Source of the DNA: Bacteroidales bacterium
GTDB taxonomy: Bacteria > Bacteroidota > Bacteroidia > Bacteroidales > PUMT01
Reading direction: 5' to 3'
Length of the DNA: 64,000 nt
Assembly (NCBI GenBank): GCA_007132225.1
Contig: SLPB01000045.1
Coordinates: 11,940 to 75,939 of the forward strand
Part shown: positions 12,903 through 32,117 of the stretch, piece by piece
Position numbering within the stretch: position 1 is the stretch's first letter
Layout of the letters: the number at the start of each line of letters is the position of its first letter
Position numbers and translations under genes: made by a program
Notes under the pieces: model-generated
The model's input: the letters and a program-made list of their open reading frames with translations, nothing else
Database searches by the model: none
What the model was told of the DNA's origin: nothing

Positions 12903-12985
12903 ATTAAAAAGAGCAAAGTTTACATGGGGTCAATGAGCGTTTTTTTTACAAGGACAAATATGAGGGCGGACATTATGGACCGGCA

Positions 12986-14869
12986 CTAATTAAATTTTTT
13001 GCGCTGTATCCTGATGGCGTTAAAGATGGCAGCAAGGGCAACGCCCATGTCGGCAAATACCGCTTCCCACATACCGGCAATACCCATTGCCCCCAGTCCC
13101 AGAAACAACGCCTTGATAACAAAGACCAGCCATATATTCTGCCACACTATACGGCTGGTTTCACGGGAAACCTGAACCGCCGTGGCAATCCTTGAAGGCT
13201 GGTCTGTCTGTATCACCACGTCGGCCGTTTCAATTGCCAAATCGCTCCCCATGGCTCCCATGGCAATGCCGACATCGGCTTCCGCTATGGAAGGTGCATC
13301 ATTAACCCCGTCACCGGCAAAGGCAACAACGCCTTCGTTTCGACTGACATATTCCTTGACTATTCCGGCTTTTTCTTCGGGCAGGAGGTCTCCGTGTGCA
13401 TGGTCAATACTGAGCTCAGATGCAATTGCCAAGGTAATTGTGTCCTTGTCCCCCGACAAAATGGAGATATCTTTCACTCCTAATCTGCGGAGCTTTTCAA
13501 TAGCTTGCCTGCTGTCTTCCTTTATCTCATCGGCAAGCACAAAATATCCTGCATAACGATTATCAACAGCAACATGAATGCAGGTAAAAGGAATAGATCC
13601 TGTTTCGGGAAGAACCCTGACTTTGTTCTTATCCATCAATTTATTATTACCTGCAAGCAACTTATGTCCGTTAACCGTACCCGTTATGCCCATGGCTGAA
13701 TGCTCTCTCACCTCTCCGGTGCGGGCATCACCGGAATTAATACCTGTGTAATCAACTATAGCTCTTGCTACCGGATGGTTCGAATGGCTTTCAAGAGCCG
13801 CGACCAGTTTAAGAAGCTCTTCCCGGTCAAATTCAACGGGTTTAAATTTCCTTACAGAGAAAGTACCCCTGGTGAGAGTCCCGGTTTTATCTATCAGTAT
13901 TGAATGCAGGTTCCTGAGCCTGTCGAGATAATCAGCGCCCTTGAAAAGGATCCCGTTCTTTGAAGCCGCACCAATGCCTCCGAAATAACCAAGCGGAATT
14001 GATATGTAAAGTGCACAGGGACATGCTATTACCAAAAAAACAAAAGCCCTGTAAACCCACTCTTCAAATTGGTAAACCTCAACAAAAATCCAGGGCAGAA
14101 ATGTAACCATCAGTGCCATTGCCATTACCCCTGGAGTATAATACCTGGCAAACCTGCGCATAAACCTTTCTGTGGGAGCTTTTCTCTGGTTTGCCTTCTC
14201 AACCATGTCAAGTATCCTGGAAAGGGAGCTGTTGCTGAAAGTGGCAGTAACCTCTGCTTCTACAACACCTTCGAGGTTTATCGAACCGGCAAGGACTTTT
14301 TCTCCCCTGTAAACAGAAGTTGGCTTGCTTTCTCCGGTAATTGCCGATGTATTGAGTATTGCCCTGTCCGAATTAAGCTCCCCGTCCAGAGGTATTTTCT
14401 CTCCCTGTTTAATGAGCAGGCTCTCCCCCGGCAAAACCTCTTCAGGTTTTACCACAATCCATTGGTTTTCCCGTCTGACAGTAGCCTGGGCCGGCCGGAC
14501 ATCCAGCAACGCTTTGATATTTCCCCTGGCCCGGCTGACTGCATTCTCCTGGAAAAGCTCACCAACTTCATAGAAAAGCATTACCGCAACCGCCTCGGCA
14601 TATTCTCCTATAATAAAAGCACCAAGAGTTGCAACCGACATCAAAAAAAATTCGTTGGCAAAATCCAGTCTGGCCAGTTCCCTTCCGGCCCTTAACAATA
14701 CAGGCCCTCCCACCAGCATATATGCAAATGCATACCAGTACAAAGGAATAATACCGGTAAAAAACCCGGCTCCGGAGAAACTCATTGCAAGGCCGCCAAT
14801 CAGCATAACCCCGCTGATAACTGCAGGTACATATTGCCTTTTGAATAGCATAATCAAAAATTTACTCAA
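12986..14869 (-). CDS. P1B-type heavy-metal ATPase, Zn/Cd/Pb-like (P1B-2), without an N-terminal metal-binding domain
   Basis: 627 aa. Motifs: CPC in the TM segment (VIACPCALYISIP), DKTGTLT, SNHPVARAI, GDGVNDAP, and a C-terminal TM motif FADMGVAL with the Asp typical of ZntA/CadA-type pumps. Confidence 0.88.
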   Translation of the reverse strand: MSKFLIMLFKRQYVPAVISGVMLIGGLAMSFSGAGFFTGIIPLYWYAFAYMLVGGPVLLRAGRELARLDFANEFFLMSVATLGAFIIGEYAEAVAVMLFYEVGELFQENAVSRARGNIKALLDVRPAQATVRRENQWIVVKPEEVLPGESLLIKQGEKIPLDGELNSDRAILNTSAITGESKPTSVYRGEKVLAGSINLEGVVEAEVTATFSNSSLSRILDMVEKANQRKAPTERFMRRFARYYTPGVMAMALMVTFLPWIFVEVYQFEEWVYRAFVFLVIACPCALYISIPLGYFGGIGAASKNGILFKGADYLDRLRNLHSILIDKTGTLTRGTFSVRKFKPVEFDREELLKLVAALESHSNHPVARAIVDYTGINSGDARTGEVREHSAMGITGTVNGHKLLAGNNKLMDKNKVRVLPETGSIPFTCIHVAVDNRYAGYFVLADEIKEDSRQAIEKLRRLGVKDISILSGDKDTITLAIASELSIDHAHGDLLPEEKAGIVKEYVSRNEGVVAFAGDGVNDAPSIAEADVGIAMGAMGSDLAIETADVVIQTDQPSRIATAVQVSRETSRIVWQNIWLVFVIKALFLGLGAMGIAGMWEAVFADMGVALAAIFNAIRIQRKKFN

Positions 14870-14906
14870 AATAACAGAAAAATAAATATTAGTACATATA
14901 ATTAGT

Positions 14907-14914
14907 TATATTTG
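14907..14914 (+). promoter_or_regulatory. Candidate Bacteroidota -7 promoter box (TATATTTG matches TAnnTTTG) upstream of the Cys-rich leader ORF
   Basis: It matches the TAnnTTTG consensus exactly and lies 22 nt before the mini-ORF ATG. I saw no clear -33 TTTG. Confidence 0.35.
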
Positions 14915-14935
14915 TTCAATCAATCAGGAACCATA

Positions 14936-15022
14936 ATGCTCAATTACGCCCAAGTTCTTTGTATCTGTTGCTGCGAATCGACTACTTCAAGCTGTCGGGA
15001 GGGTTTTGTTTTATTCAGGTAA
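14936..15022 (+). CDS. Candidate leader peptide, 28 codons: MLNYAQVLCICCCESTTSSCREGFVLFR (5 Cys, 3 consecutive)
   Basis: ATG at 14936 and TAA at 15020. Cys codons are at 14960-62, 14966-74 (TGT TGC TGC) and 14993-95. It is followed by a terminator hairpin and then the mccA-like gene. It is too short to appear in the supplied ORF track. Confidence 0.45.
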   Translation: MLNYAQVLCICCCESTTSSCREGFVLFR

Positions 15023-15048
15023 CAGTTCAAATATTATACAAATCCTTT

Positions 15049-15079
15049 AAAGCCCTTCAGCCAACTGCAGGGCTTTTTT
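15049..15079 (+). terminator. Intrinsic terminator/attenuator 15 nt upstream of the mccA-like start codon
   Basis: 12-bp stem AAAGCCCTTCAG (15049-60) / CTGCAGGGCTTT (15065-76) with one mismatch and loop CCAA. The T-run at 15074-15079 continues from the 3' arm of the stem. No + strand gene lies upstream except the mini-ORF, so it is positioned as a cis-regulatory attenuator. Confidence 0.65.
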
Positions 15080-15093
15080 AATACTATAATTCT

Positions 15094-16068
15094 ATGCAAA
15101 ATTCAGTTTTAGATTTAATAGGGAACACCCCAATGGTAAAACTATCCCAATTTGATACAGGAGCCTGCAATCTTTTCCTGAAGCTGGAAGACAGAAATCC
15201 TGGTGGATCTGTAAAAGACAGGATAGCTCTTTCAATGATAAATCACGCCGAAAAAAATGGTCTGATCCGGCCGGGCTCTTTACTTGTTGAAGCAACGGCA
15301 GGAAACACAGGTCTGGGACTGGCCCTGGTTGCTGCAATAAAAGGATACAGGTTGCTGCTGGTTATTCCCGATAAAATGAGTAAAGAAAAAATACTTCATC
15401 TGAAGGCAATGGGAGCAGAAGTAAAGATAACCCGCTCTGATGTGAATAAAGGACATCCGGAATACTATCAGGATATGGCAGAGAAAATTGCCATGGATAC
15501 CAGTAATTCCTATTATGTAAATCAGTTTGAAAACCCAGCAAATCCCCTGGCACATGAGAAAACAACCGGTCCGGAAATTTTCCGGCAAATGGATGGCAAG
15601 GTAGATGCGATAATCTGCGGAATCGGCTCTTCCGGCACGCTAACCGGACTGACCCATTATTTTCAAGGGGTCAAACCAGATGTGGAAATGATAATAGCAG
15701 ATCCGGAAGGTTCTGTAATAAAAGACTATGTAACCACAGGAAGTTTTGGGAGGGCCGGTTCATGGATGGTGGAGGGAATAGGAGAAGATTTCATACCCAC
15801 TATTGCAGATTTTTCCCTGGCCAAAACAGCATACACTGTAAGTGACCAGGATAGTTTTACTACAGCCCGGGAATTATTGAGAAAAGAAGGCATCCTTGCC
15901 GGTTCTTCAACAGGAACGCTCCTTGCTGCAGCATTGAGGTATTGCCGTGAACAAAGAGCACCAAAGAATGTTGTTAGTTTTGTATGCGATACAGGTAATA
16001 AATACCTTGCCAAAATGTTTGACGATTCCTGGTTAAAGGCAAAAGGATTAAGTACTGATATTAGGTAA
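15094..16068 (+). CDS. PLP-dependent cysteine synthase / cystathionine beta-synthase family enzyme (MccA/CysK-like, no CBS domains)
   Basis: 324 aa. It has the PLP-Lys motif KLEDRNPGGSVKDR, the ATAGNTGLGLA loop and the GIGSSGTLTG phosphate-binding loop. It is paired with a cystathionine gamma-lyase gene. Confidence 0.88.
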   Translation: MQNSVLDLIGNTPMVKLSQFDTGACNLFLKLEDRNPGGSVKDRIALSMINHAEKNGLIRPGSLLVEATAGNTGLGLALVAAIKGYRLLLVIPDKMSKEKILHLKAMGAEVKITRSDVNKGHPEYYQDMAEKIAMDTSNSYYVNQFENPANPLAHEKTTGPEIFRQMDGKVDAIICGIGSSGTLTGLTHYFQGVKPDVEMIIADPEGSVIKDYVTTGSFGRAGSWMVEGIGEDFIPTIADFSLAKTAYTVSDQDSFTTARELLRKEGILAGSSTGTLLAAALRYCREQRAPKNVVSFVCDTGNKYLAKMFDDSWLKAKGLSTDIR

Positions 16069-16166
16069 TAGTGAATTAAAAAGACATAAAAATTTTAATG
16101 CTTAGCTAATACAGTATAACAAAATATTATAATCCAAAAACAAATTAACCCATAAATACCTATACC

Positions 16167-17303
16167 ATGCAATTTAAAACCAAGGTTATACATGCAGCCC
16201 AACAGGCCGATATTAGTACAGGGTCCGTTGTAACTCCCTTACACCTTACTTCAACATACAGGCAGGAAGAAGTAGGTATTCATAAAGGTTTCGAATACAG
16301 CCGCACCGGTAATCCTACACGGAAAGTCCTGGAAAACTGCCTGGCTGAACTGGAAAGTGGTAATTTCGGCCTTGCCTTTGCTTCAGGAATGGCAGCCGAG
16401 CATGCAGTTATATCTACCCTCAGCCCCGGAGATCATATCGTTGCATGCGGTGATATGTACGGTGGGACCTACAGGTTATTTGAAGAAGTTTTTAAACCAC
16501 TGGGCATGAAATTTAGTTATGTTGGATGGGAAGCCGGAGAATTTGAACAGGCAGTGAAAAAAAACACAAAGCTTTTCTGGATCGAATCGCCTACCAATCC
16601 GTTAATAAGGCTGATAGATATCAGGGCTGTATCAGATATTGCAAAAAGAAACCAGATAAAGCTTGTAATGGATAATACCTTTGCAACTCCCACTTTCCAG
16701 CAGCCTTTGCTGATGGGAGCCGACCTGGTGGTACACAGTGCTACAAAATACATCGGAGGCCATTCCGATCTGATCGGAGGAGCTTTGGTAGTAAATGACG
16801 AAGACTGGTACAACAAATTGAAATTCCTGCAGAATTCTGTTGGGGCCATTCCCGGGGCTTTCGACAGCTGGCTGATGCTCAGGGGAATAAAAACCCTGGC
16901 AATCCGTATGAAGCAGCATGCGGAAAATGCCCTGGAAATAGCAACATTCCTCGAAGATCATCCCGTGGTTTCCGAAGTTTATTATCCCGGTCTTAATACA
17001 AGTCCTTACTATGAACTGGCAAACAGGCAAATGACCGGATTTGGAGGCATGGTTTCATTTAAACTTAAAGACGGCAACCTGGAAACAGCAAACAGATTCT
17101 TCAAAAAGCTTAAAATCATAACTCTCGCAGAAAGCCTGGGGGGTATTGAATCGCTGATAAATTATCCCGCTGTTATGACTCACGGATCCATTCCGGAAAA
17201 GCAGAGAATGGAAATAGGTATTACAAATGATCTTATAAGGTTATCGGTGGGCATTGAAGATGCAGGTGACCTGATTGATGATTTATCAGGTGCACTCTCG
17301 TAA
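16167..17303 (+). CDS. Cystathionine gamma-lyase / gamma-synthase family PLP enzyme (MccB/MetB/MetC-like)
   Basis: 378 aa. It carries the Cys/Met-metabolism PLP family motifs YSRTGNPT and the PLP-Lys region VVHSATKYIGGHSD. Confidence 0.9.
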   Translation: MQFKTKVIHAAQQADISTGSVVTPLHLTSTYRQEEVGIHKGFEYSRTGNPTRKVLENCLAELESGNFGLAFASGMAAEHAVISTLSPGDHIVACGDMYGGTYRLFEEVFKPLGMKFSYVGWEAGEFEQAVKKNTKLFWIESPTNPLIRLIDIRAVSDIAKRNQIKLVMDNTFATPTFQQPLLMGADLVVHSATKYIGGHSDLIGGALVVNDEDWYNKLKFLQNSVGAIPGAFDSWLMLRGIKTLAIRMKQHAENALEIATFLEDHPVVSEVYYPGLNTSPYYELANRQMTGFGGMVSFKLKDGNLETANRFFKKLKIITLAESLGGIESLINYPAVMTHGSIPEKQRMEIGITNDLIRLSVGIEDAGDLIDDLSGALS

Positions 17304-17347
17304 GAATTGTTAGTTAAACTATAACAGCCAGAGCTTTTCTGTTATGT

Positions 17348-17374
17348 AAGATCAGAAGAATCAGGATCTTTTTC
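17348..17374 (+). terminator. Weak candidate terminator after the gamma-lyase gene
   Basis: 6-bp stem AAGATC (17348-53) / GATCTT (17365-70) with an 11-nt loop, followed by TTTC. The stem is short, so confidence is low. Confidence 0.3.
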
Positions 17375-17422
17375 GCCCTGTTTTTCCGGTCTGTTGAGAA
17401 ACCGTAACCCTGAATAAAAGGG

Positions 17423-18019
17423 TTATTGAGTATAAACCATCCTGAATTCTACCGTAACTTCATCATGAGTGCGGATCGTGCCGAACATCAGTGTAGGGGG
17501 ATCAATATCAAAATCCGTCATTTGCAGATCTTTGGTTCCCGCACAAACAATTTCATCGGCACCGTTTATACATGTAGCTTCAACACTGATACGGCGGGTT
17601 ACACCGGATATGGTTAAATCACCTGTGGCTGTAACTTCATATTCATCTCCGTTTCTTTGAATAGTCCCGTTATCATTACTGCGAAATGTAATCTCGGGAT
17701 GGTTCTCAGCGTCCATTTCCTCGTGAGCCATTCTCTGAAGCCTGGATCTTTCACTTTCCAGAGTTGTTTTTTCAAGGATAAAAATAACTGATTCCAGCGA
17801 CTCAAGAGTCTCTCCGTTACCGGTAGAAAAGACAGCTTCACTCATTAACGTTTCGGAATGAAGTTCCCAGTCGTGCAGGGAAGATGTTCCAATTACAGTT
17901 ATATGAGAATCGCCGGTAGAAGTGTATGTAAGTGACTGAGTCATGGTATCAGGAATAACCAATATCCATGCTAAAATCATAATAAACAGTAATTTCTTGT
18001 TTTTCATAATTTTTTTCAT
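17423..18019 (-). CDS. Secreted YceI-like (lipocalin-fold, polyisoprenoid-binding family) protein, paralogue 1
   Basis: It has the signal peptide MKKIMKNKKLLFIMILAWILV. It is clearly paralogous by eye (extent not computed) to the 22343-22930 product: shared HDWE, HPEITFR, ATC-x8/9-C and DPP motifs. The track ORF extends to 18070, but 18019 or 18007 give a canonical signal peptide. Confidence 0.7.
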   Translation of the reverse strand: MKKIMKNKKLLFIMILAWILVIPDTMTQSLTYTSTGDSHITVIGTSSLHDWELHSETLMSEAVFSTGNGETLESLESVIFILEKTTLESERSRLQRMAHEEMDAENHPEITFRSNDNGTIQRNGDEYEVTATGDLTISGVTRRISVEATCINGADEIVCAGTKDLQMTDFDIDPPTLMFGTIRTHDEVTVEFRMVYTQ

Positions 18020-18108
18020 AATTTTTGAATTATTAACAACAACCATTACTATTAAAAACCAGGATGTCAACTTTGTTACATTGGGCTTTAATTAATCCAA
18101 TCACCATA

Positions 18109-20199
18109 TTACTTGTTTACATTCATTTTCGATTTTAAAAATTGCGCATTAATAGCTACAATCACTGTGCTGGCACTCATTAATATAGCTCCCACTGCGG
18201 GACTGATCAGGATGCCGGCAGTATATAAAACACCTGCAGCAAGTGGTATTGCCACTACATTATAACCGGTTGCCCAGATAAAATTCTGGATCATTTTCCT
18301 GTATGTAGCTTTACCGAAAAGGATCAGCGAAGCAATATCATTTGGATTGCTGTTCACCAGGATAATATCGGCCGTTTCTGCTGCAACATCCGTTCCGGAA
18401 CCCACTGCAATGCCAACATCGGCGGCAGCCAGTGCAGGTGCATCGTTAATCCCATCACCGGTCATGGCTACAAATTCCCCTTGTTGCTGAAATTCTTTCA
18501 ATTTTTCCAGTTTCTGATCCGGCAGAATTTCTGCAAAATAACCGTCCAGTCCAAGTTCATCACTAACACTTTTTGCCACCCTTTCATTATCCCCGGTAAT
18601 CATATATAGCTTCATGCCGCTATTCTTCAATGTTTTGACCGCCTCATAGGATTCTTCACGGATTTCATCTGCCATGGCAATAAAGCCCGCCAGCTTATCA
18701 TCTTCCATTACGAAAACCACCGTTTCAGCCTCATTTTTGTATGCTTTATCGGGTATTTCGATGTTTTTTTCCTTAACAAAATCAGGACTAACCACTTTAA
18801 TCTTTTTGCCATTAACATCGGCTTCAATTCCTTTACCGGAAATGGCATTAAAATTTTGCGCTTCGTCAGTTTGTATATCCTCATCCTTTACTTTCTTCAT
18901 TATACCTGCTGCCAAAGGATGTTCAGATTTTCCCTCGAGTGACCCGGCCAACCGCAATATTTGCGTGTCATCAAAATCCTCATTTAATGACCCATAACGG
19001 GTAACTCCAAAGTTTCCTTTGGTAAGGGTACCTGTTTTGTCAAATACCAGAACGGATATTTTTCTTGAATTTTCAAAGGCAGTCCGGTTTCTGATAAGCA
19101 AACCGTTTTGTGCCGCCATGGAAGTGGAAATTGCTACCACCAAAGGTACGGCAAGTCCCAGGGCATGGGGACAGGTGATTACCATTACCGTGGCCATTCG
19201 CTCCAATGCAAAAACAAAAGGCTGACCCACAATTAACCAGGTGGCAAGAGTTCCAAAGCCTACCGTAAGGGCAATAATGGTAAGCCAAAAAGCAATACGG
19301 TCGGCAAGATTTTGAGTTTTGGATTTTTTACTTTGTGCATCCTTCACCATGTTGATAACCTTGCTTAAATATGCATCTTCACCCGTTTCACCAACACGTA
19401 CTTTTAGCGAGCCGTTACCGTTTACAGTTCCCCCGATCACTTTATCATCTTTTGATTTTTTAACCGGTTGGGATTCACCGGTGACCATGGACTGGTTTAT
19501 ATTGCTCTCGCCTTCGGTAATTTCACCGTCAACCGGTATTTTTTCGCCGGGGCGGACTAATACCAGGTCGTCTTTATTAAGCTGGTCGACTTTAATATCC
19601 CTGGTTTCGCCATCTTTTAAGAGGTGCGCCTCGGATGGCATCAATTCAACCAGTTGCTGCAAAGACCGTGAGGCGCCAAGCACCGATTTCATTTCAATCC
19701 AGTGGCCAAGCAACATTATATCTATAAGAGTGGCAAGTTCCCAGAAAAAGGTACTGCCCTCCACCCCGAAAGTGGTTGCAGTGCTGTAACCCCAGGCCAC
19801 GGTTATGGCGACCGCTATCAGGGTCATCATTCCCGGTTGCCTGTTTTTCAGCTCATCGGCCAATCCACTCAGAAAAGGCCATCCACCATAGAAATAAACA
19901 ACCGTTGAAAGGGAAAAAAGGATGTATTTATCAACATTCGGGAACAGTACAAATTCAAATCCCAGCAGTCCCTGAAGCATGGGGGATAACAGCAGGATCG
20001 GTATGGTAATAATAAGGGAAACCCAGAAACGTTTCCGGAAATCCCTTATCATCATTTCATGATGACCGGTATGATCATGTGAGCCGTGATCATGGCCATC
20101 GTCATGTTTATCATGTTGTTCATGATTGTTCTGATTCGCCTTATGATCATTATGGTCATGTTCATTTTTATGGTTATTATGATCATGCGTTTTGCTCAT
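18109..20199 (-). CDS. copB: CopB-type (P1B-3) copper-translocating P-type ATPase with a His-rich N-terminus
   Basis: 696 aa. About 19 His fall in the first 50 aa (HDHNNHKNEHDHNDH...GHDHGSHDHTGHH). It has a CPH motif in the TM segment (ITCPHALGLAVP), plus DKTGTLT, SEHPLA and GDGINDAP. Confidence 0.9.
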   Translation of the reverse strand: MSKTHDHNNHKNEHDHNDHKANQNNHEQHDKHDDGHDHGSHDHTGHHEMMIRDFRKRFWVSLIITIPILLLSPMLQGLLGFEFVLFPNVDKYILFSLSTVVYFYGGWPFLSGLADELKNRQPGMMTLIAVAITVAWGYSTATTFGVEGSTFFWELATLIDIMLLGHWIEMKSVLGASRSLQQLVELMPSEAHLLKDGETRDIKVDQLNKDDLVLVRPGEKIPVDGEITEGESNINQSMVTGESQPVKKSKDDKVIGGTVNGNGSLKVRVGETGEDAYLSKVINMVKDAQSKKSKTQNLADRIAFWLTIIALTVGFGTLATWLIVGQPFVFALERMATVMVITCPHALGLAVPLVVAISTSMAAQNGLLIRNRTAFENSRKISVLVFDKTGTLTKGNFGVTRYGSLNEDFDDTQILRLAGSLEGKSEHPLAAGIMKKVKDEDIQTDEAQNFNAISGKGIEADVNGKKIKVVSPDFVKEKNIEIPDKAYKNEAETVVFVMEDDKLAGFIAMADEIREESYEAVKTLKNSGMKLYMITGDNERVAKSVSDELGLDGYFAEILPDQKLEKLKEFQQQGEFVAMTGDGINDAPALAAADVGIAVGSGTDVAAETADIILVNSNPNDIASLILFGKATYRKMIQNFIWATGYNVVAIPLAAGVLYTAGILISPAVGAILMSASTVIVAINAQFLKSKMNVNK

Positions 20200-20222
20200 A
20201 AGCAGCTCTCATTAAATGGTCA

Positions 20223-21485
20223 TTAAAAGCTTATTGCAGCTTCAACTACTAAACCACTGAATTCCGCACCGGCAAATCTGCCAGTCCATGCATCACCTTC
20301 ATAGCTTTGAGTGACATATTCAATCTTGGTAAGGATATTTCTGGTTAGAAACCACCCACCGCCAATATTGAGGCGACTGATTTCAAGATCCTGATCGGCG
20401 CTTTCCCTTTGTTTTCCAATGACAGAATTATATCTTGCTCCAATATAAAAATTTTCAGCAGGGCCAAACCGGTAAAGCAATTCGCCGGCCAGTTGGGTAA
20501 AAGCCCCCTCTTCATCCTGGGGATCTGTAAATTCGGCATTACCGTTGGCATGTTCCAGAATTCCAAAGAACTCAAGTCCCCTGTACTTTACAAAGGGATT
20601 AACCTGCAGGGCGGTTAATTTTGTGAAGCGGGCATTGTACCTTGGTAAAAAGTTTCCTCCCTGCTCATCAGTGTGAATAACATCGTGATACCTTGCCCCT
20701 GACCGGTCACCACCATATAACCATGTTCCCGTGCTTGTCCCGTTGTTTATGTACCAGGAACCGGTAAGCCTTACCCTCAGATCCTGATCAAGATATTTAT
20801 CAAAACCTAGTTTGCCATAAAAGGATGGCTCATTATCTCTGCCATTTACGATTACACTTTGATTCAATTTTCCGTTTGTAAGCCCGATTACTGCAAGCAG
20901 TCCGTTTCTTTGCACGGTTACTTCTCCAAAAGCCTCGGTAGAAAAAGAATCCATTATATAATTACCCACGAACGGATTAAAAATTGTCCTTGCATTATCA
21001 CTTCTCCGAAAATGCGCATCACCATAATTGAATTCATCCAGCCCTATTGTTACTGTTGTAAACTGCATAATATTCTCCAGAAATCCCGGCTGAATAAAAT
21101 TAAGACTGCTTACCTGCATGTGGCCGCCTTTTATCCAGGCTTCAGGATGATGCCTGGATGACAAAAAAGTTCTAAGATGCATTCTCATACCTTCTGCTAA
21201 TTGTACATCCAGGTTTAAATTGGCTGAGGGCAGGTTGAAATCAGCACCAAGATCAACCAGGGTACCGGCTGTATTGGTTTGATCCAATCCCTGGAATTGC
21301 ATTGAAAAATCGCCACCAACACGAACAAAGAATTCTTCATAAGCAACCGTATCCAAAACAGGATCTTCAAAAACATTTATACCTCTCTGGTCATTTGGAC
21401 GCCAGTTTTGTAGGTCACGATACTGTGCTGTAATTGTAGTTGTTATAAAAAGAGTTAGCAGAATTAAAACTTTTGACTTTTGCAT
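20223..21485 (-). CDS. Uncharacterised outer-membrane beta-barrel (porin-like) protein
   Basis: 420 aa. It has a signal peptide (MQKSKVLILLTLFITTTITAQ), alternating amphipathic strand patterns and a C-terminal aromatic residue (..EAAISF) typical of OMP barrels. Confidence 0.65.
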   Translation of the reverse strand: MQKSKVLILLTLFITTTITAQYRDLQNWRPNDQRGINVFEDPVLDTVAYEEFFVRVGGDFSMQFQGLDQTNTAGTLVDLGADFNLPSANLNLDVQLAEGMRMHLRTFLSSRHHPEAWIKGGHMQVSSLNFIQPGFLENIMQFTTVTIGLDEFNYGDAHFRRSDNARTIFNPFVGNYIMDSFSTEAFGEVTVQRNGLLAVIGLTNGKLNQSVIVNGRDNEPSFYGKLGFDKYLDQDLRVRLTGSWYINNGTSTGTWLYGGDRSGARYHDVIHTDEQGGNFLPRYNARFTKLTALQVNPFVKYRGLEFFGILEHANGNAEFTDPQDEEGAFTQLAGELLYRFGPAENFYIGARYNSVIGKQRESADQDLEISRLNIGGGWFLTRNILTKIEYVTQSYEGDAWTGRFAGAEFSGLVVEAAISF

Positions 21486-21652
21486 GATTTTCTAATTTTG
21501 GATTTAATAATTAAAACTTTAAGATTCTTACTTCAAATGTTAATAATTCAGTTAGCTCTCATATTCCCTGAAAAATAAATTTAATTTAGCTAACACCCGG
21601 GGAGGGCATTTTGTTAATGGAATTTGCAAAAAATTAATATGAAAATAATCAT

Positions 21653-22324
21653 TCAATCCAGTCTTGATATTGCTACAGGATGTACAATGTAATTAAAGCG
21701 GACAGTAATTTCATCATTAACTTTCACCAGGCCCAGGAAAGGTGAGGGAGGAGTAATTCCAAAATCCGACATATTCAGGTCTGCACTGCCTTCAAAGCGG
21801 TATTCCATTGCTTCATATCTTTGCCAGTCTATAATAAGTTCCAGGGTATCTGTATGGCCGTTTATGGTAATTGCGGCGTTTGTCCTAAAATTCCCGCCAT
21901 CTGATGAGAGATTTCCATTGGTTAGCATTGCCTCAATTAATTTAATCTCTATCCTAGAATTCTCTTCTCCTCCAAGGGCTTCATACATATCACGTTTCAT
22001 TCTGGAATTTTGACAATTAAACGAACTTATATCAATTAATAATTGTGCATCAGAAAAATTTACCAGATCTTCACCAGGATTGAAATCCACCAATATTACT
22101 CCATTTGAAATACCACTTTCCGCAACACATTGAAATGAATTGATATTGGTTGTACCTGCAAGAGCCATCCAGCTGTTTCTGTTCACAGAATATGATATAA
22201 TGCTACTTATTTCTGTATTTTTCACATCACTGCTCCCGGCATTAGCGCCCTGGTTAAATGAAAACAAAAAAACGAGAACTAGAACTGTATTTATATAGAT
22301 GTATTTTTTGTTGCTCATAATCAT
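21653..22324 (-). CDS. Secreted protein, distant YceI-like paralogue (uncertain)
   Basis: 223 aa with a signal peptide. It shares the C-terminal pattern D-F-x-I-x-PP...V-x-D-E-I-T-V with the flanking YceI-like genes. Two Cys occur in N-S-F-x-C contexts. Confidence 0.5.
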   Translation of the reverse strand: MIMSNKKYIYINTVLVLVFLFSFNQGANAGSSDVKNTEISSIISYSVNRNSWMALAGTTNINSFQCVAESGISNGVILVDFNPGEDLVNFSDAQLLIDISSFNCQNSRMKRDMYEALGGEENSRIEIKLIEAMLTNGNLSSDGGNFRTNAAITINGHTDTLELIIDWQRYEAMEYRFEGSADLNMSDFGITPPSPFLGLVKVNDEITVRFNYIVHPVAISRLD

Positions 22325-22342
22325 ATCATACTACTTTATTGT

Positions 22343-22930
22343 TCATCGGGCATACACTATGTTATAGCTGATTGTAACCTCATCTCCTGTACGAAGTGCT
22401 CCCAGCATCATTACAGGAGGATCAATATTATAATCGGTCATTTTTAATTTTTGAGAGCCTGAGCAAATCAGCTTTTTATCATCTCCGTTTACACAGGTTG
22501 CTCTGACGTTAATCTGGCGCGTATTACCTGCAATTGTGAGTTCTCCATTAGAAATAATTTGATAATTATCCCCGTTCTTTTCAAACCTGCCCGTTCCGTT
22601 TGTACGAAAAGTAATCTCGGGATACCTGCCGGCATTAAGTGCATCATAGGCCCTTCGGTCAAGTCCCGATTTATCGCTTTGGAGAGTTCTTTTTTTCAGA
22701 CTGAAGGATACCGATTCAAGTTGTTCAGGTTGTCCATCATCATTCATTTTAAACCGGGCTTCACTGTTAATAGTCTCAGATATCATTTCCCAGTCATGTA
22801 TTGTTGAGGAGCCCTTTACCATTATATATGAATCACTAGTGGGTTTGTATATTTGAGTCCGGGCTTGCAGACCATGTGTCAACAAAACAATGCAGGCAAC
22901 CAGAATAATCTTAAAAGTTGTATTTCTCAC
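22343..22930 (-). CDS. Secreted YceI-like protein, paralogue 2
   Basis: 195 aa with a signal peptide. It shares the motifs STIHDWE, YPEITFR, ATCVNGDDKKLIC and YNIDPP with the 17423-18019 product. Confidence 0.7.
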   Translation of the reverse strand: MRNTTFKIILVACIVLLTHGLQARTQIYKPTSDSYIMVKGSSTIHDWEMISETINSEARFKMNDDGQPEQLESVSFSLKKRTLQSDKSGLDRRAYDALNAGRYPEITFRTNGTGRFEKNGDNYQIISNGELTIAGNTRQINVRATCVNGDDKKLICSGSQKLKMTDYNIDPPVMMLGALRTGDEVTISYNIVYAR

Positions 22931-22967
22931 GAGTAAATATTTATATTGTTAACAAATTATTAATCAC

Positions 22968-23414
22968 TTATATATGAAATATTAATTCTTCCTGTTTTGT
23001 ATCCAATTCAAACTGGTCTCTTACCAGATCATTTATTGTTATTGATTTAAGATAATCAGTGATCACCATGTTAAGTCCCTGCCACAAGTTCCGTACTGCA
23101 CACTTTCCTTCCCTGCTGCAAGTACTCTGAGGCAATAAGCAATCAACAACTGACAGCCGGGAATTAAAAGCTGAATGAATGTCATAGGCAGTAATTCTTT
23201 CAGGTTCCCTGGTTAACCTGTATCCGCTTTTTTTACCAGATACATTAGCAACAAGTCCTGCTGATTTCAAGCCTGTAATTATCTGATCCAAATACTTATA
23301 TGATATCTCCTGGTTCAGGGAAATATCTTTTTGAAAAATATCCTTTTCGGACTTATTAAAGGCCAATTCCATTATAGTTCTGATCCCATACCTGGTTTTA
23401 GTATTGACTTTCAT
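22968..23414 (-). CDS. Rrf2-family transcriptional regulator with a putative Fe-S cluster-ligand Cys triad
   Basis: 148 aa. The N-terminal wHTH TRYGIRTIMELA...ISYKYLDQIITGLKSAGLV is typical of Rrf2. It has C-x6-C-x5-C (CLLPQSTCSREGKC), as in IscR/NsrR-type members. Confidence 0.9.
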   Translation of the reverse strand: MKVNTKTRYGIRTIMELAFNKSEKDIFQKDISLNQEISYKYLDQIITGLKSAGLVANVSGKKSGYRLTREPERITAYDIHSAFNSRLSVVDCLLPQSTCSREGKCAVRNLWQGLNMVITDYLKSITINDLVRDQFELDTKQEELIFHI

Positions 23415-23435
23415 GACTTTAAATACTTTACTATT

Positions 23436-23458
23436 TATCCTATTCTTTTTGTAGGATA
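23436..23458. promoter_or_regulatory. Candidate Rrf2 operator: TATCCTA-n9-TAGGATA, 22 nt upstream of the rrf2 start
   Basis: Perfect 7-bp inverted repeat at 23436-42 / 23452-58, read directly from the sequence. It is in the promoter-proximal position of the first gene of the cluster. Confidence 0.3.
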
Positions 23459-23636
23459 CAAATGTATAATTTTTCTTTGTTTAATTAAAATAATCGGCGT
23501 TAAAAAAAAATAATTATTCACTTTGCTCAGTAATAATTAGTATTAAATATTTGTTTCATCAATAAATCTGCTTTAATTTGCAGATCTTCTTTTAAGGAAA
23601 AATATTACTGTTTTTCTATCTAAACAAAACCTGGAT

Positions 23637-24014
23637 ATGTTTTTTTCCGGCCTGTTTTCAACAAGTATTCCTTATATTATCCTGGCTGCTGTTTATTCAG
23701 TCAGCCTGGGAGTATACTCGGTCTATTATATTAACAATAAAGTTTTCAACAGTAATTTTCCTGAAAAGGAGATTAAAGTATCGGGAAAAACTGAAATAAA
23801 CTTCGCCGATTATAATTTTGAAGATTATGCATGGTATAAACAGGTCTATGATAATTCCAATTCTTCTTCAATCCCTCCATACTCAAAACTAAAACAAGTA
23901 TTATCACCGGTGAAGCCGATTTTTATCCACCTTATAAGTAACCGAATTGAGAATTCAGAATTCAAATTGTTTTCAAGGCCCCCCCCTGTTTTTTTACTCC
24001 GTATTCTTCACTAA
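23637..24014 (+). CDS. Hypothetical small membrane-anchored protein (weak call)
   Basis: 125-aa ORF in an AT-rich gap. It has one N-terminal hydrophobic segment and a low-complexity N/S-rich remainder, with no recognisable motif. Confidence 0.3.
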   Translation: MFFSGLFSTSIPYIILAAVYSVSLGVYSVYYINNKVFNSNFPEKEIKVSGKTEINFADYNFEDYAWYKQVYDNSNSSSIPPYSKLKQVLSPVKPIFIHLISNRIENSEFKLFSRPPPVFLLRILH

Positions 24015-24094
24015 ATTTATGCATACTTTGGTATTTATGTTCTATCAGGCAAATAAACACCAGCTTCGCACAATTTAAATTTTTCATGTTTTTG

Positions 24095-24109
24095 AATCAG
24101 ATTCTGATT
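24095..24109. promoter_or_regulatory. Candidate operator: palindrome AATCAG-ATT-CTGATT about 70 nt upstream of hemA
   Basis: Perfect 6-3-6 palindrome. The extended 19-mer GAATCAGATTCTGATTATC matches the classical Fur box GATAATGATAATCATTATC at 12/19 positions, counted by hand. Confidence 0.3.
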
Positions 24110-24177
24110 ATCTCTTCCCTTTCCTGAGGATTTAACCAGCGTCTGCATGTAAAGCAGGTATTCAATTAATAATTATT

Positions 24178-25428
24178 ATGATCGGTGTATTAGGAATAAA
24201 TCATAAAACAGCATCCCAGGATGTTCGCCAGCTCTTTAGCTTTGCAAGAGGGGAGATCATATACTTTTCCGAACTGGTCAGGCGAAAGACTGAAATTTCA
24301 GAGATTGTAGTGCTTTCCACCTGTCACCGGACAGAATTGTACTATTATGACAACACTTTCAACAGGAAAATCGCTAAAGTGCTGACCGGCCTGTTACATG
24401 ATTTTAAAAAAGTATCCGGAAACCACGAGGAACACTTTTACAAATACAGCGGGGTTGCCGCAGTGAAACATCTTTTCAGGGTAACCTCAGGAATGGATTC
24501 AGTTGTAATTGGTGAAGATCAAATCGTAAAACAGGTAAAGGATGCCTATATGTTTTGCACAGAAGCAGTACTGACAGAGGCTGTTCTTATGCGCCTTTTC
24601 CAAAAATGTTTTGAGACAAGCAAGCGGGTTCGTACCGAAACCACTCTTCAGCAAGGGCCCACTTCATTAAGTAAGGTCGCGGTTGATTTATGCTGCAGGG
24701 TATTTGATGATCTGTCTGATAGAACAGTATTGTTCATAGGATCTGGAGAAACTGGCCGGCTGGCACTTCATTATATGTTTAAACTGGGTGTGACAAAAAC
24801 CTATGTTTCAAACCGCACTTATGATAATGCACTGGCACTGGCACGGGATTATGGTGCCACCGCTTTAGATTTCAATAAATTCAGGGACATTTTGCCAGAA
24901 TGTGATATTGTTATAGTGGCAACCGGTGCACAGGAACATTTTATAAGCAAATCAGATGTAGAGAAAGCACAGGATGAAAGGGATCACAGCAGACAGCTTT
25001 ATATTGACCTCTCGGTTCCGCGCAATATTGAAACTTCAATCTCAGCTATAAAAAATATTCAGCTCCATGGGGTTGACGATATGCAGCGAATCTTTGATGA
25101 AGTTTCTGTTAAACGTACATCAGGAATTGAACATGCAACCAGTATAATAAACGAAATGGCGGAAGAATACATGCACTGGTACGATTGCCTGTCACTAAGC
25201 CCGATTATTAAAACAATCACAAAAAATATGCAAAAGGTGCGGGACAAAGAGATGAACGCTTATAAAAAAACCGAAGATATCCAAAACTTCCAGGTAATAG
25301 ATGAGTACACAAACCGCATAACACAAAAATACATCAGAATGCTGATCAGGAATCTGAGAAATGCCTCAAAAGATAAGCCCTCTGCACATTCTATGAATAT
25401 TGTCAATAAATTATTTAAGTTTGAATAA
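24178..25428 (+). CDS. hemA: Glutamyl-tRNA reductase
   Basis: 416 aa. It has LGINHKTA, the catalytic Cys context LSTCHRTELY, and the NADPH domain GSGETG. Confidence 0.93.
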   Translation: MIGVLGINHKTASQDVRQLFSFARGEIIYFSELVRRKTEISEIVVLSTCHRTELYYYDNTFNRKIAKVLTGLLHDFKKVSGNHEEHFYKYSGVAAVKHLFRVTSGMDSVVIGEDQIVKQVKDAYMFCTEAVLTEAVLMRLFQKCFETSKRVRTETTLQQGPTSLSKVAVDLCCRVFDDLSDRTVLFIGSGETGRLALHYMFKLGVTKTYVSNRTYDNALALARDYGATALDFNKFRDILPECDIVIVATGAQEHFISKSDVEKAQDERDHSRQLYIDLSVPRNIETSISAIKNIQLHGVDDMQRIFDEVSVKRTSGIEHATSIINEMAEEYMHWYDCLSLSPIIKTITKNMQKVRDKEMNAYKKTEDIQNFQVIDEYTNRITQKYIRMLIRNLRNASKDKPSAHSMNIVNKLFKFE

Positions 25429-25458
25429 CTATTTCAGTAACCTGCCAAAAACAAATTC

Positions 25459-26385
25459 ATGACCGGAAGTAAGATAATAATTGGAACCAGAGGAAGCAGG
25501 CTTGCAATGTACCAGGCAGAACAGGTGAGGGCAAAAATCAGGAAAGTCAATCCAGGTATAAGCCCAGAGATAGTGATAATTAAAACCAAGGGTGATAAGA
25601 TACTCGATGTTGCTCTTTCCAAAATAGGGGGTAAGGGTTTGTTTACCAAAGAGCTTGAATATGCCCTGACCGGCAAAAAAATCGACATGGCCGTGCATAG
25701 TCTCAAAGATCTGCCGACCGATCTGCCGGAAAGATTCACAGTTGGTGCCGTTCTGGAACGTGCTGATTTCCGCGATGCACTGGTCAGCAAAAATAATAAA
25801 AAGTTAAGTGAGCTCAGTGCCGGCGACAGGATAGGCACCTCCAGTCTCAGGCGTCAGGCCGGCTTGCTCCATTTAAATAAGGAGCTGCATGTTACAGATA
25901 TCAGGGGCAATATAAATACTCGCCTGCAAAAAATGAAAGAGGGGCATTATGATGCAGTCATTATGGCTGCAGCAGGCCTCATAAGGCTGGAAATGGAAAA
26001 TCATATCACAGAAATACTGGATCCTGAAACTTTCATTCCTGCAGTAAGCCAGGGAATTATTGCTGTTGAGATCCGTACCGGTGATGAACATACCCAAAAG
26101 ATCTGTGACGCCATCAATCACCGGGAAACCTGGCAGGCTGCCTGCATGGAGAGAGCATTCCTGAACACCCTGCAGGGCGGATGCCAGGTACCCGCGGGAT
26201 GCTATACAACCCGAAATGAATCGGCAGTTTCCATTACCGGTTTTGTGGCTTCACCGGACGGGAGAATCTATCTTAAAGAAAATATGGAAACCCCTTTCGG
26301 TAAAATGGAAGAAACCGGCAGATTATTGGCCCGCAAGCTTATAGCACGGGGGGGAGACAAGATTCTTAAGGAGATAAGGCCATAA
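25459..26385 (+). CDS. hemC: Hydroxymethylbilane synthase (porphobilinogen deaminase)
   Basis: 308 aa. It has IGTRGSRLAMYQA, AVHSLKDLP and the cofactor-Cys region GGCQVP. Confidence 0.95.
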   Translation: MTGSKIIIGTRGSRLAMYQAEQVRAKIRKVNPGISPEIVIIKTKGDKILDVALSKIGGKGLFTKELEYALTGKKIDMAVHSLKDLPTDLPERFTVGAVLERADFRDALVSKNNKKLSELSAGDRIGTSSLRRQAGLLHLNKELHVTDIRGNINTRLQKMKEGHYDAVIMAAAGLIRLEMENHITEILDPETFIPAVSQGIIAVEIRTGDEHTQKICDAINHRETWQAACMERAFLNTLQGGCQVPAGCYTTRNESAVSITGFVASPDGRIYLKENMETPFGKMEETGRLLARKLIARGGDKILKEIRP

Positions 26386-26444
26386 CTTAGTAAGGAAAAT
26401 CATCAAGTGCCGGATCAATTAAGTTTGGGAAAACATAAATTTCT

Positions 26445-27230
26445 ATGGGTGACAGAGGTATAACAAAACAGATCAAAGGGAAATTATTTATTTCAACACG
26501 GCCAGCTGGAAGGTCTGCAAAATTGCGGAAACTTCTGGAAGAGCAAGGTGCAAAGCTGATTGAGATGCCTATGATCGACATCCGTAAATCCCCCCTGTCA
26601 ATCCGCGAACTGCAGCTAATAAAAAACACGAAGCAATTTAACTGGATAGTTTTTACCAGTTCCAATGGTGTCAGAGGATTTTTTGAACAGCTTAAAAGTA
26701 TATCCGGAAGTTATAAAACAGGCGGCATGACTAAAATTGCTGTAATTGGAAAAGATACAGGTATGGAACTCAGTAATTTTGATCATGATGCTGACTATGT
26801 CAGCACCAGGTCTACCGGAAAGGCCTTTTCCGCTGAGCTGCACAAGATGTTCAGGGGAGGAAACTATAAAATTTTGCTGCCGGCGGGTAATCTTGCCCGT
26901 TCAACAATTGAAGACAGGCTCAGTGATATTGCGGATGTTGTCCGGGTAAATGTTTATAATACAGAAATGCCCGGCTGCATAAATTATGAAGCTCTTAAAT
27001 GCATTGAAGATGATAAATATGAAATGATAATATTTACAAGCAGTTCCGGTTTTAATAATTTTTGCCTTATATCCGGGGATAAGATTAATATTAAAACGCT
27101 GAGGATAGCCTGCATCGGAAGTACAACTGCTGAATCTCTGGCACGAGCCGGTGTCAGTCCGCTGGTAATAGCAACAAAAATGAATTCCAGGGGAATTGTG
27201 GAAGCAATAACGGATTATTACAAAGTTTAA
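26445..27230 (+). CDS. hemD: Uroporphyrinogen-III synthase
   Basis: 261 aa. It shows the HemD pattern (TRP...L...G......P.I; FTSSNGV; repeated FTSSSG half) and sits between hemC and hemB. Confidence 0.85.
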   Translation: MGDRGITKQIKGKLFISTRPAGRSAKLRKLLEEQGAKLIEMPMIDIRKSPLSIRELQLIKNTKQFNWIVFTSSNGVRGFFEQLKSISGSYKTGGMTKIAVIGKDTGMELSNFDHDADYVSTRSTGKAFSAELHKMFRGGNYKILLPAGNLARSTIEDRLSDIADVVRVNVYNTEMPGCINYEALKCIEDDKYEMIIFTSSSGFNNFCLISGDKINIKTLRIACIGSTTAESLARAGVSPLVIATKMNSRGIVEAITDYYKV

Positions 27231-27256
27231 AATACAAATTATAAAATCCCATAATA

Positions 27257-28225
27257 ATGAGTTTTCCTGCAACAAGACTTCGCCGCCTGAGAAAATCGGC
27301 CGTAACACGAAATATGATCAGGGAAACAAGGCTGAACAGGTCAAACCTTGTTATGCCCTTGTTCGTGAAACATGGTAGCAACATCATGAACCCGGTCACC
27401 TCCATGCCGGGCAATTACCAGTTTTCGGTCGACCGGCTGACTGAACATTGTAAAATGTTAGCCGGCAGCGGTGTGCAGTCGGTACTGCTTTTTGGTATCC
27501 CTGAGAAAAAAGACGAGACCGGTGATGTTGCCTCCTCCCCCGATGGAATTGTTCAGCAGGCAATCAGGTCACTCAAGAACGAGATACCCGGGTTGTTTGT
27601 AATAGCGGATGTATGCAATTGTGAGTATACTGTACACGGCCATTGCGGCACTATCATAAATGGTGACGTAGATAATGATTCAACGCTCACCACACTGGCC
27701 AGGCAGTCCCTGTCACTTGCCCTGGCCGGCGCAGACATGGTGGCGCCAAGCGATATGATGGACGGCCGGGTAGCGGCAATAAGGAAAGTGCTTGATAACA
27801 ACAACTTTCACAACCTGCCCATAATGTCCTATTCTGCCAAGTACTCTTCGGCATTTTACGGACCTTTTCGCGAAGCTGCTGAAAGCAAGCCTGAATTCGG
27901 AGACCGTGCCACATACCAGATGGATCCTGCCAATAAAGATGAAGCACTTCGTGAGGTCGCCCTGGATGTTGAAGAGGGTTCAGATATAGTAATGGTAAAG
28001 CCTGCACTTGGTTATCTGGATATAATAAATGAAATAAAGGGCAATTTCAACATCCCGGTTGCAGCCTATAATGTAAGTGGTGAATTTTCTATGGTAAAGG
28101 CTGCTGCTGAAAAAGGATGGATTGATGAAAAACGGATCGTAATGGAAATACTAACTTCAATAAAACGGGCCGGGGCCGACATAATAATTTCATATCATAC
28201 CAAGGATATTATTGCAGAGTTATAA
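27257..28225 (+). CDS. hemB: Porphobilinogen synthase (ALA dehydratase), Zn-type
   Basis: 322 aa. It has RLRRLR near the N-terminus, the Cys-rich Zn site DVCNCEYTVHGHCG, and the active-site Lys regions MVKPA and SYSAKY. Confidence 0.95.
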   Translation: MSFPATRLRRLRKSAVTRNMIRETRLNRSNLVMPLFVKHGSNIMNPVTSMPGNYQFSVDRLTEHCKMLAGSGVQSVLLFGIPEKKDETGDVASSPDGIVQQAIRSLKNEIPGLFVIADVCNCEYTVHGHCGTIINGDVDNDSTLTTLARQSLSLALAGADMVAPSDMMDGRVAAIRKVLDNNNFHNLPIMSYSAKYSSAFYGPFREAAESKPEFGDRATYQMDPANKDEALREVALDVEEGSDIVMVKPALGYLDIINEIKGNFNIPVAAYNVSGEFSMVKAAAEKGWIDEKRIVMEILTSIKRAGADIIISYHTKDIIAEL

Positions 28226-28265
28226 ATAAACAGTTTTCATCAAAATTTAAACAATACTGAATTTT

Positions 28266-32115: not shown

Positions 32116-32117
32116 AA

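Follow-up and report, generated by a model that had tools for sequence, protein, structure and literature searches.

We analysed a 64,000-nucleotide (nt) stretch of a Bacteroidales genome (contig SLPB01000045.1 of assembly GCA_007132225.1), hereafter called the window, in which an initial annotation had drawn attention to six co-oriented minus-strand genes encoding an Rrf2-type regulator (rrf2), three secreted YceI-like proteins (yceI-1 to yceI-3), an outer-membrane beta-barrel and a CopB-type P1B-3 ATPase (copB). Our comparison with related genomes suggests that the cluster is one transcription unit autoregulated by Rrf2, that it combines a conserved envelope module with attached metal pumps, and that it responds to damage of iron-sulfur (Fe-S) clusters or thiols; we estimate the probability of this reading at about 60%. 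The regulatory architecture is well supported, and the stress signal and the biochemical role of the porin-like barrel and the YceI-like proteins are plausible. The conserved core of the cluster appears to be a self-regulated unit of two YceI-like proteins, the barrel and an Rrf2 protein with its own operator.

The co-inheritance of these genes was assessed in a sample of 251 Bacteroidales genomes, in which the Rrf2 clade was counted at 46% identity or more. The barrel was present in 35 genomes and the Rrf2 clade in 21, and 14 genomes had both, compared with 2.9 expected (P = 5e-9). In at least 11 of these 14 genomes rrf2 and the barrel gene are adjacent, and three more genomes with Rrf2 proteins of 41-44% identity show the same adjacency. 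The usual gene order is yceI-barrel-yceI-rrf2 with rrf2 last, and rrf2 comes first in some families; at least 13 genomes other than that of the window have the barrel, two yceI genes and rrf2 together in one operon. Since the flanks of this four-gene unit differ among families, the unit is self-contained. The synteny of rrf2, yceI, barrel and copB in relatives, on which the initial annotation had made its reading depend, was found for the first three genes and not for copB. No description of a YceI-barrel-Rrf2 operon was found in the literature searched on YceI in connection with copper or metals, on Rrf2 in connection with metal efflux or on Rrf2 in Bacteroidota.

Promoter, operator and transcription unit

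The perfect palindrome TATCCTA-n9-TAGGATA that had been noted upstream of rrf2 lies 21 nt from the rrf2 start codon. It occurs only once in the 3.32-Mb genome at up to one mismatch and is kept in relatives, and the shorter CCTA-n9-TAGG adjoining a -7 box likewise has a single occurrence in the whole genome, while a loose version of the motif (14 positions, up to 3 mismatches) is expected by chance within the window. The -7 promoter element of Bacteroidota has the consensus TAnnTTTG. Nearly all related loci have a TAnnTTT(G/A) box adjoining the palindrome, and five genomes of the same genus or the same family keep (A/T)ATCCTA-n9-TAGGA(T/A) upstream of rrf2, right after such a box. Because the palindrome directly follows the -7 box, transcription is expected to start inside the left half-site, which would be the geometry of a repressor. 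The operator motif was read from individual promoter regions; a regular-expression alignment of all promoter regions was too noisy.

At least 15 relatives keep the operator in front of the leading gene of the operon, be this gene rrf2 or another. Where rrf2 is the last gene, as in 11 genomes of other families, the operator precedes the first yceI in at least nine, and the site is degenerate in two (L134 and L136). Palindrome and -7 box stand before the first yceI in, for example, G207 (TATATTTGTCCTATCAATTCAATAGGAT) and G116 (TATTTTTGTCCTATCAAAACAATAGGATAAGTAGTA), and a perfect palindrome is found at this place in G060 (TATCCTACCAAATTGGTAGGAT). Since the palindrome of such genomes lies before the first yceI and not before rrf2, the operator belongs to the operon promoter, and this tracking is the expected signature of a dedicated autoregulator. 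It agrees with the earlier proposal that Rrf2 regulates the cluster, as the conserved operator travels with the promoter of the YceI-barrel operon irrespective of the position of rrf2.

Scans of the window and the genome revealed no operator-like site before suf, hem, cbs-cgl, the gene for a second, ZntA-like ATPase or copB, and the sole such site in the genome points to a local regulon. A role of Rrf2 as a suf or hem regulator of this genome through the present motif was rejected because such sites are missing upstream of those genes. Duplicated operators were observed elsewhere. In one locus (L129; G254:C1, 8198-8288), the promoter-operator segment before yceI-barrel-yceI-rrf2 is tandemly duplicated, with two identical TATCCTA-n9-TAGGATA sites 68 nt apart. 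Another locus (L137; G200:C26, 5595-10137) contains two rrf2 paralogues around one barrel gene and two operator copies, one upstream of the barrel gene and the other upstream of a divergently placed yceI.

All six open reading frames (ORFs) were recovered from the ORF list of the window at the coordinates first given, and the intergenic gaps of 37, 18, 167, 23 and 89 nt (the last being 38 nt with the start at 18070) also agree. The extent of the cluster was only partly as described: the six genes stand, and a second P1B ATPase of the same theme lies at 12986-14869, just beyond the range given (Table 1). The RNA downstream of yceI-3 is predicted to form two stable hairpins (minimum free energy -13.4 kcal/mol, z = -3.0, none of 200 shuffles as stable), and no significant folding was observed for the internal 167-nt and 89-nt spacers (z about +1). 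Short gaps, unstructured internal spacers and stable hairpins only 3' of yceI-3 would fit a single six-gene transcript. A sigma-70 and terminator consensus scan performed no better on this DNA than on shuffles, this consensus not being suited to Bacteroidota, and an Rfam scan of 12500-24300 gave no match.

Table 1. Features of the rrf2-yceI-barrel-copB cluster and its surroundings (window coordinates).
Feature	Position	Strand	Basis and remarks
-7 promoter box TACATTTG, Bacteroidota-type	23459..23466	-	Sequence reading; abuts the upstream side of the operator
Operator, perfect palindrome TATCCTA-n9-TAGGATA	23436..23458	.	Sequence; predicted to overlap the transcription start
rrf2, 148 amino acids (aa), C92-x6-C99-x5-C105	22968..23414	-	PF02082, TIGR00738
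yceI-1, secreted YceI-like, GTSxHDW subfamily	22343..22930	-	PF04264
yceI-2, divergent YceI-like, second subfamily, two conserved Cys (F-x-C ... F-D-C)	21653..22324	-	PF04264
Porin-fold outer-membrane beta-barrel, 420 aa, uncharacterised family	20223..21485	-	AlphaFold2 model and Foldseek
copB, P1B-3-type ATPase, lineage-specific insertion	18109..20199	-	TIGR01511 and motifs in the translation
yceI-3, third YceI-like gene	17423..18019	-	PF04264; ORF spans 17423-18070, internal ATG at 18019 is the preferred start
Two adjacent hairpins beginning at the stop codon of yceI-3, where the transcription unit probably ends	17387..17425	-	RNA folding against shuffles
ZntA-like P1B-2 ATPase, 627 aa, CPC motif	12986..14869	-	TIGR01512; ortholog of the congener pump

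In the whole 3.32-Mb assembly we counted three yceI genes, all of them in the cluster, two rrf2 genes and four genes for P1B ATPases. A candidate gene of 125 aa with a hydrophobic N-terminus (23637-24014, plus strand) lies inside the 760-nt intergenic region between rrf2 and hemA; its product had no Pfam or NCBIfam match.

Envelope proteins and metal pumps

The barrel had been regarded as an orphan, which is contradicted by its more than 7,590 homologues, none of which has a Pfam domain. By sequence, it belongs to no described family: the window barrel matched no Pfam or NCBIfam model, a Pfam search at E <= 1 over 57 barrel members yielded only weak generic OMP_b-brl matches and none to Porin_O_P, and a search of the PDB with the barrel sequence profile gave no match. 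Its translation contains a signal peptide and a C-terminal Phe, as is the case for outer-membrane barrels. In the 80 best-matching genome loci, which come from several orders of Bacteroidota, the barrels are 54-78% identical to that of the window; the family is unusually conserved among these loci, and many His, Asp, Glu, Arg and Lys residues are invariant in the alignment. A single-sequence AlphaFold2 (AF2) run gave a predicted local distance difference test (pLDDT) score of 30 and was not used. Repeated with a 57-sequence alignment, the prediction reached a pLDDT of 80.9 and a predicted template modelling (TM) score (pTM) of 0.81, with about 18 strand segments. A Foldseek search with this model returned 263 PDB matches at E <= 0.001. 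Porins make up nearly all of the top 50 listed, headed by the Pseudomonas aeruginosa proteins OprO and OprP (E about 1e-12, TM about 0.6, approximately 10% identity). The superposition of the model on porins agrees with the porin-like nature first proposed and indicates a general porin fold (16-stranded-type beta-barrel).

The barrel neighbourhoods were counted in the same 80 loci. In 69 of them the gene immediately upstream of the barrel encodes a YceI protein, and in 36 the one immediately downstream, on the same strand, encodes a YceI protein of the second subfamily; no further neighbour is common to more than 18 loci. The adjacency in 69 loci suggests that YceI and the barrel form a genuine functional pair.

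As annotated, there are three YceI-like genes, and all three products passed the PF04264 gathering score of 23.7 bits (yceI-1 52.9, yceI-2 32.1, yceI-3 50.3 bits). The E. coli YceI equivalog model (NF002994) stayed far below its cut-off of 232 bits for two of them (30.8 and 27.3 bits) and did not match yceI-2. YceI-3 is 44% and YceI-2 23% identical to YceI-1, for which the PDB sequence matches were TT1927b, YceI and PA0423. The subfamily upstream of the barrel is characterized by the motifs GTSxHDW, KS, D..Y.AL, G.LTIAG and PP, with HDW kept in about 91% of 71 barrel-adjacent YceI proteins, and the downstream subfamily (36 homologues) by two conserved Cys. We found nothing to support the suggestion that the YceI proteins are metal carriers. 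A Cys pair shared by YceI-1 and YceI-3 was considered as a metal site and rejected as a family feature, since it is not conserved among the barrel-adjacent YceI proteins.

Metal-efflux genes recur beside the barrel. CusA/CzcA-type resistance-nodulation-division (RND) pumps, with TolC-like and adaptor genes, were found in 14 loci, P1B ATPases in 10 and HYC_CC_PP genes in 10, and further neighbours encode MerT-like, HMA and CsoR-like proteins, a MerA-like oxidoreductase and an integrase. A typical one-strand string reads CsoR-like, HMA, MerT, YceI, barrel, YceI, HYC_CC_PP, CzcA, TolC. When only loci with at least 5 kb on both sides were considered, such metal genes lay up to 6 kb away in 21 of 53. 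The czc and the P1B contexts each need at least six independent changes on the barrel tree. Near-identical barrels are shared between families, a sign of horizontal transfer along with metal islands, and the arrangement resembles a metal-resistance island that spreads horizontally and has the YceI-barrel module as a part. The earlier idea of an envelope-spanning metal module held for the YceI-barrel pairing and its recurrent link to metal efflux, and failed for copB as a conserved member. Barrel branch lengths of about 0-0.03 between genomes of different families were seen for eight loci (L050, L051, L052, L054, L058, L060, L010 and L013), where the barrels lie in CsoR-like/HMA/MerT/MerA-like/HYC_CC_PP/CzcA/TolC islands; some such islands contain an integrase (L009, L010, L013).

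P1B-3 ATPases are recognized by the motifs CPH, YN-x4-P and MSxST and by a His-rich N-terminus in place of an HMA domain. The CopB translation has about 20 His in its first 50 residues and contains VITCPHALG, GYNVVAIP and LMSASTV, and the protein scores 627.8 bits with TIGR01511 (cut-off 397); profile, CPH motif and His-rich N-terminus place it in the P1B-3 (CopB-type) group, in line with its annotation as a poly-His CopB. Its gene begins 23 nt after the barrel gene. The second ATPase of the window scores 491.7 bits with TIGR01512 (cut-off 313.5), aligns with IACPCAL at the motif and belongs to the P1B-2 type; the ZntA "exception" model stayed below its cut-off (413 vs. 1240). It has no N-terminal metal-binding domain and is separated from the cluster by a convergent cbs-cgl pair.

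In congeners and family members (G014, G005, G012, G018), the one-strand order is sufBCDSE-sufT, rrf2, yceI, yceI, barrel, P1B-2 ATPase. The congener pump has 621 aa, a CPC motif and no N-terminal domain, and that of G014 is 69% identical to the ZntA-like ATPase of the window, which is probably the ancestral pump partner of the cluster. Two closely related metagenome-assembled genomes (MAGs) have the order yceI-yceI-barrel...yceI3 / cgl-cbs / ZntA-like without copB, and in the congeners the position downstream of the barrel is occupied by the ZntA-like pump instead of copB. Therefore, copB is an insertion between the barrel gene and yceI-3, and copB and the third yceI are later, lineage-specific additions, copB being recent. 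On these grounds of synteny, copB as the core of the system was rejected, and its inclusion in a conserved unit could not be upheld. The closest CopB copy found (80% identical) comes from a Mariniphaga MAG, where its gene follows a barrel gene and an HMA gene; this barrel belongs to a different clade from that of the window. Orthologues of yceI-3 (194 aa, 65-72% identical) come after the barrel in two loci (L004 and L006).

Further observations concern the same region in congeners. In one locus (L104; G018:C21, 3973-5844), the ZntA-like pump gene after the barrel is split into two ORFs, possibly by a frameshift or as a pseudogene. In three congeners rrf2 lies approximately 180-230 nt downstream of sufT. 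In the window, a whole 10-kb hem operon (24178-34627, plus strand) stands between suf and rrf2 and is absent from that position in congeners; the proximity of sufT and rrf2 there suggests that the hem operon was inserted or rearranged into the suf-rrf2 junction here.

The regulator, its signal and the alternatives

Membership of the regulator in the Rrf2 superfamily is clear from PF02082 (112.3 bits, cut-off 30) and TIGR00738 (114.7 vs. 73.3). All equivalog models stayed below their cut-offs: IscR (TIGR02010, 108.4 vs. 207.55 bits; NF008110, 75.9 vs. 275), CymR (NF047409, 90.2 vs. 195), NsrR (37 vs. 182), RirA (53 vs. 193) and likewise the SUF regulator and HypR. IscR and then CymR are the best of these sub-threshold matches, and the nearest solved structures are also IscR and CymR. 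The three Cys of the C-x6-C-x5-C triad already noted (C92, C99 and C105) are invariant in 33 of 33 homologues, as in the Fe-S subgroup, and the protein most probably contains an Fe-S cluster. An IscR would be expected to control isc or suf; such control is not indicated here, with no operator-like site before suf in the window (present motif only).

A second rrf2 gene of the genome (G000:C84:18461-18835; L085, 1495-1893, minus strand) encodes a 19% identical protein with C-x6-C-x4-C and adjoins genes for a large membrane protein and a glycoside-hydrolase-like protein. In one relative (L100; G016:C31, 8313-8750), the rrf2 orthologue contains an in-frame TAA.

Members of the Rrf2 clade also occur before other genes. 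In at least six genomes they directly precede PALP and Cys_Met_Meta_PP (cysK/cbs-cgl-like) genes; a full ATCCTA-n9-TAGGAT-type operator stands before these genes in L112, L117 and L122, and only its left half in L101. Six loci (L101, L110, L112, L117, L122 and L094) have an rrf2 homologue before cysK/cbs-like and cgl-like genes, an arrangement similar to that of CymR targets. A genome of another family (L109; G040:C6, 7902-11640 and 16632-18117) has two Rrf2 paralogues of the clade, one directly before hemA-hemC-hemD and the other before hemB, with only AGGATA half-sites upstream. The common denominator of the clade cargo is cysteine, Fe-S and heme metabolism.

Thiophilic metals do damage to all these pathways, and copper, zinc and cadmium are toxic to Fe-S enzymes. 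The clade cargo, together with the presence of both Zn/Cd-type and Cu-type pumps, argues against a metal-specific sensor, and the signal is likely Fe-S or thiol damage and not copper itself; we favour a sensor that reports indirectly on the integrity of Fe-S clusters or thiols, or one whose three thiolates bind soft metals promiscuously. Copper-specific sensing is unlikely, since the same clade and operator occur at cysK/cbs-cgl-type genes and the clade is also found before hem. The lack of a classical copper sensor was confirmed: neither CsoR nor CueR reached its cut-off in the genome, which is 96% complete and has its only HMA domains on another contig, with a CopA-like pump. A 2024 review names ArsR, MerR, CopY and CsoR as the families of efflux regulators, Rrf2 not being among them, and describes Rrf2 proteins as sensors of Fe-S status, iron, cysteine, nitric oxide and oxidants, some sensing quinones (PMC11672702).

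We propose that rrf2-yceI-yceI-barrel-copB-yceI would be transcribed as one unit from the Bacteroidota-type promoter, the start of which would be covered by the 23-bp operator. An Rrf2 dimer would bind this operator and repress its own operon; when its cofactor or thiols are lost or modified, it would leave the DNA and the operon would be expressed. Likely triggers would be thiophilic metals (such as Cu, Zn or Cd), oxidants or a lack of iron or sulfur. The conserved cargo may act as an envelope module, made up of an outer-membrane channel with a porin fold and of YceI-like periplasmic proteins of two kinds, to which the family of the window would have attached inner-membrane metal-efflux pumps, the ZntA-like pump being ancestral and CopB and the third YceI being added here. 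This module might help to remove metal that reaches the periplasm through the pumps, or protect against it. Genome comparison shows the unit, the operator and the inheritance of both together; the repression, the cofactor, the signal and the role of the envelope module in metal disposal or protection are our inference. A more specific scheme, in which YceI-porin-YceI is an envelope route dedicated to thiophilic metals, the highly conserved porin, rich in His, Asp and Glu, lets metal brought into the periplasm by P1B or RND pumps leave the cell, HDW-type YceI proteins carry the metal in the periplasm and Rrf2 senses soft-metal damage through the loss of its own Fe-S cluster, seems doubtful to us; if true, metal-efflux regulators would gain a fifth family in Rrf2, and outer-membrane metal channels a new one in the barrel.

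Several findings weigh against a damage-responsive unit concerned with metals. No metal gene lies within 6 kb in 53 of the 80 barrel loci, and metal pumps are missing from the roughly 5 kb around the four-gene unit in 14 Bacteroidales genomes outside the family of the window. A second promoter could be present in the 167-nt gap upstream of the barrel gene, which holds a partial -7-like box (AACATTTG). Solved YceI proteins bind polyisoprenoids or quinones, not metals (PMC8981238). Finally, the placement of the clade elsewhere before cysK/cbs-cgl or hem genes would be explained by a signal of cysteine or Fe-S supply no less well than by metal.

The last point leads to the main rival, a nutrient-supply regulon in which a CymR- or IscR-like sensor of cysteine or Fe-S sufficiency controls the import of a sulfur or iron source through the outer membrane by porin and YceI proteins at times of low supply, the pumps being controlled separately. 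It would account for the cysteine-gene and hem neighbours of the clade and for rrf2 right after sufBCDSE-sufT in congeners, and it is in keeping with IscR and CymR as the best equivalog matches and with anion-specific porins as the best structural matches of the barrel. However, the window has no operator-like site before suf, hem, cbs-cgl or the ZntA-like gene, the short distance between the barrel gene and copB leaves no space for a promoter, and YceI-barrel recurs in metal-efflux islands under CsoR-like or two-component control. We regard nutrient supply as the strongest alternative and yet an improbable one.

Less probable again is our second rival, outer-membrane lipid or quinone homeostasis, in which YceI proteins would carry polyisoprenoid or quinone with the barrel as partner, Rrf2 would sense redox or electrophile stress and the pumps would share an envelope-stress response. 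All three YceI proteins pass the Pfam model, the solved proteins most closely related to them are E. coli YceI and TT1927b, which binds polyisoprenoids, and YceI-like domains bind ubiquinone-8 (PMC8981238); certain Rrf2 proteins sense quinones or oxidants (PMC11672702). However, HDW replaces the usual residues at the classical YceI motif region, the NF002994 score is far below cut-off, and the barrel has a general porin fold and not a FadL- or LptD-like lipid-transport fold. A DesA-like desaturase gene between barrel and pump would also suit lipid homeostasis, but it was found in a single genome (G014). That rrf2-yceI-yceI and barrel-copB-yceI3 are unrelated units joined by rearrangement and without shared function is very improbable. 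The partial -7-like box before the barrel gene and the clearly later insertion of copB and yceI-3 would be compatible with it, but the YceI-barrel adjacency in several orders and the joint operons of barrel, two yceI and rrf2 in other genomes speak against it, and synteny has already largely refuted it.

Comparison with known systems

If the preferred reading of an Rrf2-autoregulated, damage-responsive unit holds, it defines a compact and widespread regulon in which a promoter box and an operator accompany the genes for an Rrf2 repressor and three envelope proteins. A barrel family with thousands of members and no Pfam model now has a predicted fold, partners, a regulator and a recurrent metal-resistance context. 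This matters because the passage across the outer membrane of metal ions that Bacteroidota have pumped into the periplasm is poorly understood, and because Rrf2 proteins are absent from the recognized metal-efflux regulators.

With IscR, NsrR, RirA and RsrR, the regulator has in common the PF02082 fold, a three-Cys cluster-type motif in the linker region and, as predicted here, autoregulation. The IscR motif is AxxxCCxxAxxxxxxxTAxGGxxxT (PMC4169559). In a hand comparison with this type-2 motif, the CC/GG doublets of the operator are equally spaced (13 nt) and the inner A and TA are displaced by a single base. The present Rrf2 differs from the IscR group in scoring below all equivalog cut-offs and in having C-x6-C-x5-C without a His three residues after the last Cys, and its regulon appears to be a single envelope and metal-pump operon, not isc or suf. 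CymR of Bacillus subtilis and Staphylococcus aureus is the second-best equivalog match and a close solved relative, and the clade precedes cysK/mccAB-like genes elsewhere, mccAB being a CymR target in B. subtilis. Here, however, the score is less than the CymR cut-off (90 vs. 195 bits) and the three-Cys site is invariant, whereas characterized CymR proteins are not known to have such a site.

The YceI-like proteins share the Pfam family, secretion and a mature length of about 170 aa with YceI, TT1927b and PA0423. They fall into distinct subfamilies (GTSxHDW; two-Cys) and have a porin-like barrel as their partner; in E. coli, the partner of yceI is yceJ, a cytochrome b561 gene. OprP and OprO, the phosphate- and diphosphate-specific porins of P. 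aeruginosa, are of similar size to the barrel and its best structural match, although sequence identity is low, none of the 57 members matches Porin_O_P and the profile found nothing in the PDB. CopB has the same His-rich N-terminus, CPH, YN-x4-P and MSxST as the P1B-3 ATPases of Archaeoglobus fulgidus and Sphaerobacter thermophilus; here, its gene is embedded in a putatively Rrf2-controlled operon between porin and YceI genes. Finally, YceI-barrel-YceI is a recurrent co-directional passenger of the heavy-metal islands of Bacteroidota (CzcCBA, HYC_CC_PP, MerT, HMA) in Cytophagales and Prolixibacteraceae. In place of the RND pump, HMA protein and CsoR-like repressor of such islands, none of which is encoded nearby, the window has an Rrf2 regulator and P1B pumps.

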